From assembly GCA_964391035.1 (NCBI GenBank), contig CAYMLW010000004.1, positions 1 to 39,056 of the forward strand: a DNA stretch of 39,056 nt, written 5' to 3'. The DNA comes from an uncultured Gemmatimonadaceae bacterium. GTDB taxonomy: Bacteria; Gemmatimonadota; Gemmatimonadetes; Longimicrobiales; RSA9. A model generated the notes under the pieces. It made no database searches. It was not told the DNA's origin and saw nothing but the letters and a program-made list of their open reading frames with translations. Of the stretch, positions 21,205 to 28,470 are shown piece by piece; positions within the stretch are counted from its first letter, which is position 1; each line of letters begins with the position of its first letter. The translations under genes and the position numbers were made by a program.

Positions 21205-21804
21205 TCAGCTCAGGTCCATCGGCCCGTGGCCGCCGGGGCAAATCGTCGGCCCGTAGGCTTCGAGCCACTTGCGCGTGGTCCGGGCGATGTAGCCGCAGGT
21301 TCCGCACTCCATCTTTTTCATCCGGGTGCTTTGCTTGCGACCCTGCGCGGTGGCCATCGTGAGCGTGGCGTGGGGGTACTCCCCTAGCTCGCGGGCCAGT
21401 GCGGTGAGCGCGTCGTGGAGCAGGCTGCCGGGCTCGGCGATGGTCGCCGTCGGCTTGCCGCCGAGGCCCCACGCCTTCATCGCGGTGACGAACGCTCCCC
21501 GGTGCCCGGTGCCCGTCGGCAGCGAGGCGTGGAGCACCTCGTGCAGGAGGACGTCGAGCACGCGGACCGGGTCGCCAAGCTCGGAGCTGACGAACAGGGT
21601 CCGGTTGCCGTCCTCGGTGCCGTAGTGGCACTGGCCGATGGCGCGGTTCGCGCCCTTCCGCGAGCCCGTCGGGAACCCGACGCTCACGTAGAGCTTCTCC
21701 GGGACCTCGATACCAGCGACCTCCTGGCTGATGTCGCGGAACGCCGTGATGGCGGCCTGTAGCCAACCTTCGCGGGTGGAGTAGTGGTGGGTGGTGGTTG
21801 TCAT
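21205..21804 (-). CDS. SprT-like zinc metalloprotease with C-terminal zinc ribbon
   Basis: GAGGAG RBS before ATG 21804; TREGWL, IGQC, LLHEVLHA...GHRGAF, KQSTRMKKMECGTCGY...CP.GH. Confidence 0.85.
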   Translation of the reverse strand: MTTTTHHYSTREGWLQAAITAFRDISQEVAGIEVPEKLYVSVGFPTGSRKGANRAIGQCHYGTEDGNRTLFVSSELGDPVRVLDVLLHEVLHASLPTGTGHRGAFVTAMKAWGLGGKPTATIAEPGSLLHDALTALARELGEYPHATLTMATAQGRKQSTRMKKMECGTCGYIARTTRKWLEAYGPTICPGGHGPMDLS

Positions 21805-21838
21805 TGGTGGCTCCTCGTGGTGGCTTGCTTCGCTCACG

Positions 21839-21869
21839 AGGGTAGGGGGGTGTTTACACTGTTTGTCAA
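21839..21869 (-). promoter_or_regulatory. candidate sigma70/SigA-type promoter
   Basis: TTGACA-N19-TACCCT upstream of the SprT-like gene; the spacer contains GTGTAAACAC. Confidence 0.45.
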
Positions 21870-21881
21870 GTCGAGGGTGTG

Positions 21882-22334
21882 TTATCGGCAATCGGGACAG
21901 TGCTTCGGCTTCCGGCCGCGCACGCGCTTGCGGGTGAACGTCCCACCGCACGCCTGGCACGTCAGCTCCTCGTGCCCCTCGGGCAGCTCCACCTCGGGGC
22001 GCTCCTGCCGTGGCGCCGGCAGCGCCTCGCCTTCGGCATCGGCCACGAGGTCGCCCCACCGCTGGTGCGCCGTCGTGGCGCCCTTGGGCAAGGCCCCCTT
22101 CCCGGTGCGCGCGCAGCTCGACGGGGTAGCGTAGGCGTGCTTCCCCTTGTGCTGGCCCGTGCGCCCCACGAGCATGAGGTCGACCTTCCCCGAGGCCCGC
22201 CGCAGCGTCTCGCGAAAGGTGTAGCGCCCGGAGCGCCCCTCGACCTTCACCTCATCGCCGGCCGTGAGCACCTTGCCGGTGCCGGAGCGGTACTCGTCGC
22301 GGACCTCGACCACGGGGTCGGGCTGAATGAACAT
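21882..22334 (-). CDS. hypothetical protein with C-terminal zinc ribbon
   Basis: AGGAGG RBS before ATG 22334; LTCQACGGTF...GRKPKHCPDCR. Confidence 0.75.
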   Translation of the reverse strand: MFIQPDPVVEVRDEYRSGTGKVLTAGDEVKVEGRSGRYTFRETLRRASGKVDLMLVGRTGQHKGKHAYATPSSCARTGKGALPKGATTAHQRWGDLVADAEGEALPAPRQERPEVELPEGHEELTCQACGGTFTRKRVRGRKPKHCPDCR

Positions 22335-22412
22335 TTGCGCCTCCTGGTGGTGAGAAATACTAGCCGGGTGTACCGTGCCTTCACCCCGATTTGCAATCTT
22401 GAGGAGCACCCG

Positions 22413-22643
22413 ATGACAAAGGCCGAACGCATCGAAGCGGTCATCGCGGCGCACGCCCGAGCTACGTCGACCCGCAGGGTGGCCGACCACGCCAGCGAGG
22501 TGGTCAAGCGCGAAATCGCGCAGGCCCTCGACAGCGGCGTGCTCGCCCCCGAGCTGGCCACCGAGCTTGGGCTGAGCGTCGTGCGCATCTATCAGCTCGC
22601 CCGCCAGGGCCGCGCCCTACTCGAAGCCGAGGAGCGAGAATGA
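22413..22643 (+). CDS. small helix-turn-helix DNA-binding protein
   Basis: GAGGAG RBS; GVLAPELATELGLSVVRIYQL HTH pattern. Confidence 0.8.
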   Translation: MTKAERIEAVIAAHARATSTRRVADHASEVVKREIAQALDSGVLAPELATELGLSVVRIYQLARQGRALLEAEERE

Positions 22644-22915
22644 CCACGCCGACCATCGCCCCGAACCCGACCTACGCCCCGCCGAAGGTGCCTGAGCGCA
22701 CTCGCCACCCCGACCGCACCCGCGACCGGGACCGGCTCGTGCACATCGTGGACGACCGCGACAAGGTCCGCGAGGCCATGCACTACGGCTTCCCCGTCAA
22801 GGCCCTGTGCGGCAAGCGGTGGGTCCCACGGCGGTGGAAGCCGCGCGGCGGCCTGCGCTGCCAGGTGTGCGCCGACATCGCCCGGCAGCGGTACCCCGTG
22901 GGCCCCGGAGAGTGA
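22640..22915 (+). CDS. DUF3039-like zinc-binding protein
   Basis: HIV...KV.EA...G.PV.ALCGK.WVP...CQVC pattern of the actinobacterial DUF3039 family, recalled rather than searched. Confidence 0.8.
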   Translation: MTTPTIAPNPTYAPPKVPERTRHPDRTRDRDRLVHIVDDRDKVREAMHYGFPVKALCGKRWVPRRWKPRGGLRCQVCADIARQRYPVGPGE

Positions 22916-22970
22916 CCAAATGACCTACCTTGCAACCGCCCAGGCCGTGTCAAGGTTGCCAAGTTGGTCG
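22913..22970. other. candidate attP of the serine integrase
   Basis: 58-bp imperfect inverted repeat (19 of 28 positions symmetric) around an asymmetric central CA at 22941-22942, abutting the integrase stop between convergent genes. Confidence 0.7.
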
Positions 22971-24428
22971 TCAATCCACCGCCAGCGCAGCGTGACGCGC
23001 TCTCGAAGGGGTGTGGCGCGGGCCGCGCCCCTTCGATTTCGCCACCTCGACCCGCTCCAGGAAATAGAGGGCGATGGTTCGGCGCTCCCTGGTGGTCAGT
23101 CCCGCCCACCGCTCGGGCAGGTCGTCGGCGAGGGTGCCGGGACGCTCGTGCAGTGGCGCCCGGAGGGCTTCGAGCTGGCCGAGCGCAGCGTCGAGTCGGC
23201 CCTGCGCGCGCTCGATGGCCTGGCGCCAAGAGGCCAGGGCGTCGGGGCCCTCGTAGAGCCCGTCCAGACGCTCCTCGTGGAGCTGCGCGATGAGGTCGCG
23301 GTACCGCCCCACCTCGGCCTCCACCTCGCGCGCGCGCTCGCTGGCGTCGCTCTCGATGGCCAGCTTGGCGGCGAGCCGGGGCTCGATGTCGGTGAGGATG
23401 GCCTCCCCCACGTAGGCGTCGAGCCCGCCCATGCGCACCGCTGAGCCGGGGCACTCCCCCGCACGCTTCTGGCACACGTAGCTCTGCGCCTGCGCCGACC
23501 GCATCGCGGTCATCGGGCCACCGCACTCCCCGCACCGCACGAGCCCCGCGAGCATGGACTCGTTCTGGCTGCGGCGCACGCCCCCGGTGCGGCGCCCTCG
23601 ACGGTCCAGTTCCTCGATGAGCGCGCGCCACCGCTCGGGGGCGAGCACGGGCTCGTCGGCGACCGTCACCGGCAGGCCGTCCTCATCGCGCACGAGGTCG
23701 TGGTGCTCCTGGCCGTGGGGGCGGTGGCTGCGGTAGCCGGCGAGGACCGGCTTGCGCAGGAGCTTCGAGAGGTTGGCCTGCTGCCACTCGCGCCCGGTGC
23801 GGGTCCGCTCTCCGCGCTCGTTCCAGGAGGTCAGCACGGCGCGCGTGGACTCCCCCGCCAGGACCCGGTCGGCCAGCTCGCGCAGGAGGGCTGCCTCGAC
23901 GGGCTCGATGGCCAGCCGCTTGTGCCCCTCGACCTCGATGAGCCGGTACCCGTAAGGCGCCTGGCCCCCGGTCCAGAAGCCACCCCGCCGAAGGTGCGCC
24001 TGCGCGCTCGACACTCGCGTGGACGTGTTCGCGCTCTCCTGCTCGGCCTGCGCCGCGACGAACCCCGCGATGGCCTGGCCAATCGGGGTCGAGGTGTCCA
24101 GCGACTCGCTCGTGGAGACCAGCTCGACGTCGGCCTCGCTGAGCCGGCCCATGAGCCCCACGAGGTCGGTGAACCGACGGTAGAGGCGGTCGAGGCGCCA
24201 GACCACGAGGACATCGTAGGCGTCGAGGCTGGCGAGCATCCGCTCATAGGCCGGGCGCGTGACGCCGCGCTGATAGCCGCTGAGGTCCGAGTCCACGTAG
24301 AGGTCGTCGGCCTCGACAAACGAAAGCCCCCGAGCCTCGATGGCCCGGAGGCACTCGTTCCGCTGCCGCTCGACCGAGGTGCTGGCCTCGGTCTCGCGAC
24401 TGAGCCGAACGTAGGCGGCGGCGCGCAC
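22971..24428 (-). CDS. int: large serine recombinase (integrase)
   Basis: YVRLS catalytic motif, SVERQ, DLSG...RP, WRLDRL, PYGY recombinase domain, LAGLVRCGECG...YVC...C zinc ribbon, coiled coil. Confidence 0.97.
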   Translation of the reverse strand: MRAAAYVRLSRETEASTSVERQRNECLRAIEARGLSFVEADDLYVDSDLSGYQRGVTRPAYERMLASLDAYDVLVVWRLDRLYRRFTDLVGLMGRLSEADVELVSTSESLDTSTPIGQAIAGFVAAQAEQESANTSTRVSSAQAHLRRGGFWTGGQAPYGYRLIEVEGHKRLAIEPVEAALLRELADRVLAGESTRAVLTSWNERGERTRTGREWQQANLSKLLRKPVLAGYRSHRPHGQEHHDLVRDEDGLPVTVADEPVLAPERWRALIEELDRRGRRTGGVRRSQNESMLAGLVRCGECGGPMTAMRSAQAQSYVCQKRAGECPGSAVRMGGLDAYVGEAILTDIEPRLAAKLAIESDASERAREVEAEVGRYRDLIAQLHEERLDGLYEGPDALASWRQAIERAQGRLDAALGQLEALRAPLHERPGTLADDLPERWAGLTTRERRTIALYFLERVEVAKSKGRGPRHTPSRARHAALAVD

Positions 24429-24429
24429 G

Positions 24430-24600
24430 TCAGGCCGCCGCGACGATGTTTACACGGTCCGAGGAGAACGGCTTGCCGCGCTGGCCCTTGGTCACCTCGA
24501 TACGGTCGATGGTCCCTCGCGCCAGGGCGCGCCACTCATCCTCGGTGAGCCGGGTCCACGGGAGCTTCCCGCTCCGGGCGCGCTCCAGGACGACGGGCAA
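24430..24600 (-). CDS. 56-aa protein resembling the C-terminal segment of a large serine integrase
   Basis: GGAGA RBS then TTG at 24600; stop 1 nt before the integrase GTG; WTRLTEDEWRALARGTIDRIEVTKGQRGKPFSSDRVNIVAAA. Confidence 0.6.
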   Translation of the reverse strand: MPVVLERARSGKLPWTRLTEDEWRALARGTIDRIEVTKGQRGKPFSSDRVNIVAAA

Positions 24601-24756
24601 GGGCGAGGTCTCCAGACCGGGGCGGGTTTGGCAAGAGGGTGTGAAAAGTGTGGCACTATTTCCCACCATCACACAACGGGTGTTTGCATCCGGCGGGGGC
24701 CTCGGTACGGTTGGCCCCACGCCAACAAGCCAAGCGGAGAAAGGCACCCCCGCTCC

Positions 24757-24903
24757 ATGTCGCTATCACCCGAGGACCGCGCAGCGGCCAGGGCAGAAGG
24801 ACTCGCTGCACAGAGAGCGAGCGAACCACCGCAGCGCGTTATCGACCTCACCGCCCACCTACTACGCCGGGCGCGCGAGCGCCAGGAGGAAACGAACGCA
24901 TGA
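24757..24903 (+). CDS. small helical protein, possible recombination directionality factor
   Basis: First rightward gene divergent from int; 48 aa; ATGA overlap with the next gene. Function inferred from position only. Confidence 0.55.
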   Translation: MSLSPEDRAAARAEGLAAQRASEPPQRVIDLTAHLLRRARERQEETNA

Positions 24904-25910
24904 CGAGCCCAAAAAACGCACGCTCAAGGTCTGGACGAGTGTACGTCTGGCCACCTGAACCACCCTTCGAGTTGGAGGTGCCCAACGTCACCGGCATCAT
25001 CAGCGGCGGCCTGCCCAAGCCGTTCCTCAAGGGCTGGGCCGCCCGCGAGGTGGCGACCGCCGCCGTCACGCGCCCCGGCGCCTGGCGGGCCATCCAGGAG
25101 AATGAGGGCGACGCCGCCGCCATCGACTACCTCAAAGGTGCGCCCTACCGGCACACCCGCAAGCGCGCCGACGTCGGGACCGAGGTGCACGACGTCATCG
25201 AGCGTCGCATCAAGGGCCAGCACGACCCCGAGGACGTCTCCGAGGAGGCCAAGGGGTTCCTGCGCGGCTACGAGCGCTTCGAGCGCGAGTGGCGCCCAAC
25301 CTTCGAGCACGCCGAGGTGACCATCTACTCCCGGCTCTGGGAGTATGCCGGGACCGCTGACGGTGTCGCCACGCTGGGCGCCCGCCCCGACCTCGGCCGG
25401 GTCATCGTGGACTGGAAAACCTCGAAGGCCCTCTACGCCGACAACGCCATGCAGCTCACCGCGCTCGCCAAGGGCGATTTCATCGCCGTGGAGCGCGACG
25501 GCAAGTGGTACGAGGAGCCCATCGTCGGCACCATCGACAACGGGCTGCTCGTGCGCTTCACCGCCAACGGTGAGTACGAGGTGCGCATCGTGCCCGTCAC
25601 CGACGCGATTTTCGGCACCTTCCTGGCCTGCAAGCGCGTAGCCCGGTGGGACCGCGAAATCGCCCCCACCGCCCTGAGCGAGCCCATCATCCTCGACGGG
25701 GCCGCGCCGCAGCTCACGCACGTCGAGAGCCCGGCGGTCCACGAGGCCCTGGCCTGGCTCCGCGACAACGGCCCGGCCACGCTGGGGCAGGTCGCCGAGG
25801 CGCTGGACATCACCGAACGCGCAGCCAAGGGCCGCCTGCGCAAGGGCTGGCGCGACCACCGGCTCGTGCAGTACGACGACGCGACCGAGCTGTTCTCCTA
25901 TGCCGAGTGA
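24900..25910 (+). CDS. PD-(D/E)xK (Cas4/RecE-like) exonuclease with C-terminal winged helix
   Basis: PNVTGI...LPKPFL..WAA, GTEVH, YAGTAD, IVDWKTS, QL.A motifs; C-terminal GPATLGQVAEALDIT HTH. Confidence 0.9.
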   Translation: MTSPKNARSRSGRVYVWPPEPPFELEVPNVTGIISGGLPKPFLKGWAAREVATAAVTRPGAWRAIQENEGDAAAIDYLKGAPYRHTRKRADVGTEVHDVIERRIKGQHDPEDVSEEAKGFLRGYERFEREWRPTFEHAEVTIYSRLWEYAGTADGVATLGARPDLGRVIVDWKTSKALYADNAMQLTALAKGDFIAVERDGKWYEEPIVGTIDNGLLVRFTANGEYEVRIVPVTDAIFGTFLACKRVARWDREIAPTALSEPIILDGAAPQLTHVESPAVHEALAWLRDNGPATLGQVAEALDITERAAKGRLRKGWRDHRLVQYDDATELFSYAE

Positions 25911-28077: not shown

Positions 28078-28470
28078 ATGGGCATCCGTGACCGTCTCAA
28101 GGGAAAGGCGCAGCAGCCAGGTGGCGGGGATTTCCCCGACACCGTCAAGTTCGAGGACGTTGGCGACGAGGTCGCCGGCACTGTGACCGGCGTGCGCAAC
28201 GTGACCACCGACTACGGCGACGCCGTGGTCATCGCGGTGGACTGCGAGGTCCACGGCGAGGAGGTCGCCTTCTTCGCCACGAACCACAACCTCCGGCTGG
28301 CGTTCGTGGAGGGCGAAAACGACATCGGTCGCCCGGTCCAGAAGGGCGACGAGGTCTACGCCCGCTACGAGGGCAAGAACCAGACCAAGAATGGCAACAC
28401 GGTCAAGAACTTCGCCGTGGCCGTGGAGGCTGGCGGCGCCGAGGCCGAGGACGACGACGCGCCGTTCTGA
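28078..28470 (+). CDS. single-stranded DNA-binding protein (OB fold, probable)
   Basis: KFEDVGDEVAGTV pattern and acidic C-terminal tail ending DDDAPF. Confidence 0.75.
   Translation: MGIRDRLKGKAQQPGGGDFPDTVKFEDVGDEVAGTVTGVRNVTTDYGDAVVIAVDCEVHGEEVAFFATNHNLRLAFVEGENDIGRPVQKGDEVYARYEGKNQTKNGNTVKNFAVAVEAGGAEAEDDDAPF

Follow-up and report, generated by a model that had tools for sequence, protein, structure and literature searches.

A small open reading frame in front of a serine integrase gene is probably the 3' remnant of a second integrase-type gene

Introduction

The recombination directionality factors (RDFs) of serine integrases, such as phiC31 gp3, Bxb1 gp47 and SPbeta SprB, are small phage proteins that act on the coiled-coil/zinc-ribbon region. 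An RDF binds the integrase to which it belongs and makes it recombine attL x attR. We know of no sequence signature common to the RDFs, and the known RDFs are, to our knowledge, not derived from integrase sequence.

The zinc-ribbon domain itself is completed only after the coiled coil, by helix alphaM and the final hairpin beta13-beta14, according to the part of the LI integrase structure paper that is cited here (PMC3783163). C-terminal tags of the SsrA type are described on the integrases and repressors of integration-dependent immunity phages in the cited part of a second paper (PMC5764923).

Here we analyse a locus in which a 56-codon open reading frame (ORF) directly precedes the gene for a large serine integrase. 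The stretch of DNA that was analysed (the window) is the whole of contig C4, 39056 bases long, from an assembly of 627 contigs that is 88.7% complete. In a preliminary description, the ORF had been taken for a dedicated microprotein that mimics the C-terminus of the integrase, which would have meant a new control of lysogeny; the evidence presented below makes it, most likely, an ordinary gene remnant.

Results

The ORF and its junction with the integrase gene

The coordinates of the ORF and of the features around it are given in Table 1. A single base (24429) lies between the stop codon of the ORF and the GTG start codon of the integrase gene (24428-24426), and the GGAG on the minus strand (24613-24610) is located 9 nt ahead of the TTG of the ORF. 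The encoded peptide contains no Cys, has the C-terminus ...NIVAAA, and is found in the public record as a called protein of 56 aa (P0003). The statements of the preliminary description that a 56-aa ORF ends 1 nt ahead of the integrase start and that its product ends in VAAA can be read directly from the sequence. An open frame of such length is, however, weak evidence of a gene at 70% GC, with 76 ORFs of at least 30 aa over 6.5 kb in this region. The GGCGG run that precedes the integrase GTG may serve as the ribosome-binding site of the integrase gene.

Table 1. Positions of the ORF, the integrase gene and associated features in the window
Feature	Position	Strand	Remarks
56-codon ORF	24430..24600	minus	TTG start 24600-24598; TGA stop 24432-24430
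GGAG	24610..24613	minus	within CTG GAG (Leu-Glu) codons aligned to Leu-Glu of P0022; inherited coding sequence
GGCGG, weak Shine-Dalgarno-like run	24435..24439	minus	6 nt before the integrase GTG; made by the terminal Ala codons of the ORF
P0022-homologous segment, 61 codons	24433..24615	minus	corresponds to residues 271-331 of P0022/P0047/P0048; alphaM-beta13-beta14 of the zinc-ribbon domain
In-frame upstream extension	24616..24747	minus	no P0022 homology; no coding-type GC3; part of the intergenic region that separates the leftward integrase unit from the rightward early genes
Large serine integrase gene, 485 aa	22971..24428	minus	Resolvase, Recombinase, Zn_ribbon_recom; 79% identical to P0005 (500 aa)
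Frameshifted integrase 3' end	22925..23030	minus	shift just past Gly-Arg-Gly-Pro (23030-23019)
Imperfect inverted repeat, attP candidate	22914..22969		directly 3' of the integrase gene; 27-nt arms, 19/27 complementary, 2-nt centre

In the frame of the ORF, the GC fractions at the first, second and third codon positions were.67/.54/.92 for 24433-24615 and.61/.66/.57 for 24616-24747, compared to.76/.51/.92 in the integrase gene. By this measure, the extension of the ORF to 105 codons, up to a GTG at 24747, carries no coding signal.

The ORF corresponds to the end of catalytic-domain-less integrase paralogues

Three proteins of 329-331 aa, P0022, P0047 and P0048, match the ORF over their C-terminal 56-61 residues at 61-66% identity. 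Comparison of the ORF with residues 276-331 of P0022 shows 36 of 56 identical residues (64%, E = 3e-22), and a tblastn search of the window with P0022 placed residues 271-331 on 24615..24433 (66% identical, E = 3e-19). The homology thus reaches five codons further upstream than the TTG, to 24615, so that the GGAG that looks like a ribosome-binding site is old Leu-Glu coding sequence. Of the "own RBS" claimed in the preliminary description, the existence of the motif at the right distance stands, whereas its dedication to the ORF does not, since it is contained in ancestral coding sequence. Given that the GC3 coding signal and the P0022 homology both stop at ~24616, we infer a truncation of the parent gene near codon 271 with fusion of its end to non-coding DNA, and the truncation breakpoint is at ~24616, the 3' edge of the upstream extension.

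An exhaustive phmmer search of 1.84 billion representative sequences with the ORF gave three matches at E <= 0.001, namely the ORF itself, P0048, in which the match covers the C-terminal residues 274-329 (E = 4e-12), and P0049. The latter, a repeat protein of 1544 aa (E = 1e-6), was judged spurious, as five copies of a ...GRDG.LPW....D.D... repeat inflate a chance match. Apart from the ORF itself, no small protein was matched in the 1.84 billion representatives, and the sole candidate of 30-98 aa in 5.8 billion clusters was again the ORF (1 of 1). A word-indexed search for longer ORF-like proteins yielded 84 candidates, none of which reached E <= 10. P0022-like sequence was not found elsewhere in the window or in the 627-contig assembly.

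Of the parts of a serine integrase, P0022, P0047 and P0048 contain the recombinase domain, zinc ribbon, coiled coil and tail and lack the catalytic domain; in P0022 (331 aa) and P0048 (329 aa), Pfam detects Recombinase and Zn_ribbon_recom but no Resolvase domain. In alignments with full-length integrases the two proteins cover residues 152-480, and P0005, P0046 and the integrase of the window are the closest to them. Their start corresponds to residue 152 of a full integrase, where the catalytic domain with helix alphaE gives way to the recombinase domain. When P0022 was compared to the window by tblastn, residues 4-319 aligned to the integrase itself (37% identical, E = 6e-40), with the tails in the register of the preliminary description. 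P0022 and P0048 have a common N-terminal start, are 67% identical and differ by two single-codon indels; their identity is 180/268 in the body and 42/61 in the tail, with no discontinuity between the two. In the three-way comparison of the tails, 33 of 61 columns were invariant, and the unique changes numbered 9 in the window remnant, 4 in P0022 and 7 in P0048. The Ala-Ala end is common to the remnant (AAA) and all three relatives (PAA). The clusters of P0005 and P0022 have two members each, located on contigs of 15309 and 20297 bases (P0005/P0046 and P0022/P0047); as both clusters are represented on this pair of contigs, the long form travels with the orthologue of the integrase. P0022, P0047 and P0048 may represent a functional integrase paralogue consisting of the DNA-binding half only.

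Similarity to the C-terminal tails of serine integrases

In a Smith-Waterman comparison of the ORF to the whole 485-aa integrase, the best local alignment placed ORF residues 15-56 on integrase residues 440-483 with a score of 53. This score was matched by 2 of 2000 shuffles of the ORF when these were aligned to the whole integrase, and by 0 of 2000 when they were aligned to the tail alone. The alignment made by eye in the preliminary description is in the same register and, by the shuffles, beyond chance. BLASTP with composition correction did not report the tail alignment between the ORF and its own integrase (best E = 0.88, elsewhere). The similarity to serine-integrase C-termini was also present at the profile level, where an hhalign comparison of the ORF with 29 full-length homologues of the integrase, a set without the window's own integrase, P0022 and P0048, gave Prob 89.8% and E = 1.8e-6, with ORF residues 14-53 on P0005 residues 439-481. 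A tail HMM built from the 29 rows and run over 4745 six-frame segments, 740 of which came from the window, had only two matches in the window, the integrase tail (E = 5e-10) and the ORF (E = 3e-6). Comparison of the ORF to phages by tblastn returned 3 records, the best of which, the last 43 residues of the phiK38-1 integrase tail, is a lead only (E = 0.2).

Scans of the ORF with Pfam and PHROGs gave sub-threshold noise or nothing: Pfam matches to Recombinase (PF07508) and the zinc beta-ribbon (PF13408) were absent from the ORF, and no Resolvase match (PF00239) was found in the ORF or in the 105-aa extension. The ORF spans only the last ~12% of an integrase, that is, the post-coiled-coil tail alone. 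It is by descent the tail of large serine recombinases but without any defining feature of the enzyme family, as catalytic domain, recombinase domain and zinc ligands are all absent. The structural premise of the preliminary description, that the segment after the coiled coil completes the zinc-ribbon domain, holds, since alphaM-beta13-beta14 is described in this position in the LI integrase, within the cited part of PMC3783163.

The neighbouring integrase, its frameshift and a candidate attP

The three domains of the integrase were detected with Pfam E-values of 1e-28 (Resolvase), 1.2e-13 (Recombinase) and 7.7e-10 (Zn_ribbon_recom), and Y6, R8, S10 and the Cys ligands C299, C302 and C319 were invariant across 30 integrase sequences. 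We identified 42 homologues, among them P0005 and P0022; the nearest named relatives are actinobacteriophage integrases. Past Gly-Arg-Gly-Pro, the annotated integrase frame continues for 16 unrelated codons and terminates prematurely at 22971. The canonical tail is found in the other frame, 23017-22925, where the match to P0005 includes the ...RVTL.W strand and reaches the equivalent end. As assembled, the integrase thus has no beta14 of its own but keeps alphaM and beta13. Because the canonical tail frame is still open, the frameshift is either recent or an error. A Logan contig that covers 22402-23403 is identical over the frameshift region (depth ~5).

The inverted repeat directly 3' of the integrase gene overlaps the canonical frame of the integrase in the final 15 codons of that frame. 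Inverted repeats of equal score occur twice in the window (the other one at 28212-28267), compared to 0-2 in each of 10 shuffles (mean 0.4). The repeat at 22914-22969 is a likely attP.

Genomic setting and sequence support

The window looks like a free, non-integrated phage genome, in which terminase-type ORFs begin ~100 nt inside the left end and the plus strand carries nearly all frames with coding-type GC3; no terminal overlap, tRNA or att-type ends were found in it. In the assembly as a whole, a search for attL/attR-type partial matches gave only chance matches of 15-21 nt and no hybrid att contigs. Together with the small ORF that precedes it, the integrase gene makes up a leftward unit, with a rightward HTH-protein gene and a small-protein gene on one flank (about 22410-22915) and a rightward exonuclease and RusA-like resolvase on the other (24900 onward). 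The HTH gene (phrog_686) and the phrog_8575-like gene next to it, both on the plus strand, converge on the integrase 3' end, and a second small leftward block is located at 21205-22490 (minus strand), with a phrog_6361-like gene and a weak phrog_1338 match; no repressor was identified in the blocks at 21205-22915. Between the integrase unit and the exonuclease gene, ~280 nt (24616-24899) show no clear coding signal. For a 48-codon ORF at 24757-24903, GC3 in the frame of the ORF is low and PHROGs gave no match. A simple promoter scan of 22400-25000 gave 0 sigma-70-like sites.

The sequence occurs in a single sequencing run, a DNA-type run of a microbial mat metagenome, and no RNA run is listed; runs X2 and X3 contain short unlike pieces only, at 80% likeness. 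A Logan contig of run X1 bridges 24168-24927, across the junction, with 0 differences (depth ~5). Run X1 is probably from the same sample, so that the agreement of the Logan contigs does not amount to independent data.

Searches for DNA of relatives gave no close match. Megablast of 22500-25500 against phages had no match, and tblastn of P0022 against phages returned 77 records, all below 60% identity and none covering 80%. A relative of the integrase at E <= 1e-40 was found in 0 of 72 family genomes, and a relative of P0048 at E <= 1e-30 in 0 of 400 other genomes of an order sample. Viral contigs contained 8 integrase loci at 24-29% identity and none for P0022 or A2, genome contigs contained 12 loci at 25-42% identity, none of them close, and metagenome contigs contained none in one search and one locus at 27% in another. 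A DNA match of 40 nt between the ORF and contig C3 (~1440-1620), the only other one in the assembly, was rejected as chance likeness to a ...IERIEVTKG... motif. We take the C3 frame with this motif to be the plug domain of a TonB-dependent receptor (outer-membrane-receptor type), a hint of a Gram-negative binned host, although the named relatives nearest to the integrase come from actinobacteriophages. No tmRNA gene was detected by ARAGORN in any of the 627 contigs.

Discussion

The best explanation of these findings, to which we assign a probability of about 0.7, is that the ORF is the 3'-terminal remnant, comprising the last 61 codons, of a paralogous gene of the serine-recombinase type and has no protein function of its own. 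What was observed are the homology to the P0022 family, its boundary, the absence of small homologues in the searches described, and the presence of the long form together with an orthologous integrase on two contigs. Under this explanation, a second gene of the large-serine-recombinase type would once have been located directly upstream of the integrase gene, in the same operon, and would survive in the closest relatives as the form of 329-331 aa without a catalytic domain. A deletion would then have removed everything upstream of codon ~271, joining the tail to the intergenic promoter region at ~24616. The remnant would encode alphaM and beta13-beta14, an integral piece of the beta-sheet of the zinc-ribbon domain for which folding or action in isolation is improbable. 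Should the fortuitous GGAG-N9-TTG lead to its translation, it would be at most a leader frame, with termination 1 nt before the GTG helping initiation on the integrase gene; the latter has only the weak GGCGG of its own, and a gap of 1 nt between stop and start is of the kind typically seen in translational coupling. The Ala-Ala end, which is conserved, may reflect the overlap with this GGCGG rather than a degron. Such a leader role would explain the persistence of both the frame and the Ala-Ala end. The preliminary description had itself named a relic of a displaced integrase as the alternative to the microprotein; a remnant is indeed favoured, but its parent is a catalytic-domain-less paralogue and not recognisably a displaced full-length integrase.

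Several observations count against a remnant. The 61 codons contain no stop or frameshift, and the substitutions are mostly conservative; this undamaged state fits a recent truncation but also continued constraint. Further, a plausible Shine-Dalgarno-TTG combination is present, the frame abuts the integrase start, and Ala-Ala is found in the remnant as in its three relatives. The same features speak for the functional microprotein, according to which the 56-aa peptide is an unstable trans-acting piece of the zinc ribbon that complements, inhibits or redirects the integrase, a reading that we consider unlikely. The peptide may, in such a case, supply the beta14 that is missing from the frameshifted integrase, or compete for the alphaM-beta13-beta14 position, with Ala-Ala as a degron. 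The frame is intact, has a coding-type GC3 of.92, a Shine-Dalgarno-like GGAG and a TTG, and shows conservative substitutions with no excess divergence; the frameshift after Gly-Arg-Gly-Pro has removed beta14 from the integrase tail, so that complementation in trans is conceivable; and all 4 of 4 sequences of the ORF tail type end in Ala-Ala, while SsrA-like tags are described, in the cited part of PMC5764923, on phage integrases, namely those of cluster N/P mycobacteriophages, which are of the tyrosine type. However, no homologue of similar size exists among the 5.8 billion clusters or the 1.84 billion representatives, and in the relatives the sequence occurs only at the end of a protein of 329-331 aa; the start and ribosome-binding site are inside old coding sequence; most of the peptide would be redundant, as the integrase keeps alphaM and beta13; and a frameshift that is recent or an error, given that the canonical tail is still open, leaves no possibility of a partner having co-evolved with it. 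A predicted complex of integrase residues 285-485 with the ORF scored 0.31 against a mark of 0.32, in runs without controls and with the fold of the ORF partner uncertain in at least one of them, and speaks neither for nor against the microprotein. The claim of a dedicated microprotein mimicking the integrase is not supported: the ORF is the end of a larger paralogue, has no small counterpart, and starts within ancestral coding sequence.

The abrupt start of the homology beside non-coding DNA could also mark an attachment site. If attP were at ~24616 and integration took place into a P0022-like target gene, in the host or a resident element, a phage-borne copy of the last 61 codons would keep the target whole, and P0022 and P0048 would be hybrid genes in lysogens. 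P0022 and P0048 do have the same start and length despite only 67% identity, as site-specific events would give, and the contig has the appearance of a free form, with terminase genes at its left end and no att-type ends. Nevertheless, we regard such a replacement end as somewhat less probable even than the microprotein. No inverted repeat was found around 24560-24800, whereas a good one is present on the opposite side of the integrase gene, at 22914-22969, and neither a further P0022-like gene nor hybrid att contigs occur in the 88.7%-complete assembly; the missing dyad at the junction, the inverted repeat 3' of the integrase gene and the absence of another P0022-like gene all weaken this explanation. 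P0022 and P0048 are, moreover, equally diverged in body and tail (180/268 and 42/61). Serine integrases need no homology, and we know of none that carries a duplicate of its target gene. Least probable of all, and by a wide distance from the remnant, is an artefact, in which the junction at 24616 and the integrase frameshift are a mis-join or consensus errors and the real phage has a full 330-aa gene. The depth is only ~5, in the single run that contains the sequence, and the assembly is in 627 contigs; the Logan contigs of run X1, however, repeat 24168-24927 and 22402-23403 without a gap and with 0 differences, and X1 lists no loose end at 24616.

Returning to the remnant, the locus illustrates how automatic annotation turned a gene end into a "hypothetical protein", and how a frame can be kept by a tight stop-start junction when its gene has long disappeared. 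The parent family is the more interesting object, a conserved catalytic-domain-less copy of an integrase that travels with a full-length one. Should the P0022-type protein prove functional, it would show the DNA-binding half of an integrase in natural use as a separate factor, and it would bear on the tuning of directionality and site choice in serine integrases, which are widely used in genome engineering. A speculative extension, which we consider improbable, is that P0022-type proteins, encoded alongside the integrase, target it or its att sites through the coiled coil as a decoy, directionality or site-choice factor, and that the 61-codon piece is still translated and keeps part of this control; the piece may in that case be a coupled leader that sets the dosage of the integrase, or a short-lived peptide that replaces the lost strand of the hairpin.

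With the alphaM-beta13-beta14 segment of the LI/A118 integrase, as described in the cited part of PMC3783163, the ORF has in common the position to which it aligns, likewise in 29 integrases, in the phiK38-1 integrase and in the neighbouring integrase. As in the alphaM-beta13-beta14 tails of large serine recombinases, a Val/Leu/Ile-rich motif is followed by ...RV.I.... In contrast to the LI/A118 integrase described there, the segment stands alone, without zinc-binding strands, coiled coil, recombinase domain or catalytic domain. The RDFs phiC31 gp3, Bxb1 gp47 and SPbeta SprB represent the role that the preliminary description had in mind, and the ORF has no match to a family in Pfam or PHROGs. 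In the integration-dependent immunity phages, a protein of the integration module likewise ends in Ala-Ala; in these phages, however, going by the cited part of PMC5764923, the integrases are of the tyrosine type and attP is inside the repressor gene, whereas the Ala codons here also form the GGCGG in front of the integrase gene. A further parallel is provided by the gene remnants that deletion or module exchange leaves in mosaic phage genomes, where a fragment with an abrupt homology boundary is found beside an intact gene of the same family. Compared to the usual remnants of this kind, the one described here still has an undamaged frame and a usable start, ends 1 nt from the next start codon, and may thus still undergo translation as a leader.
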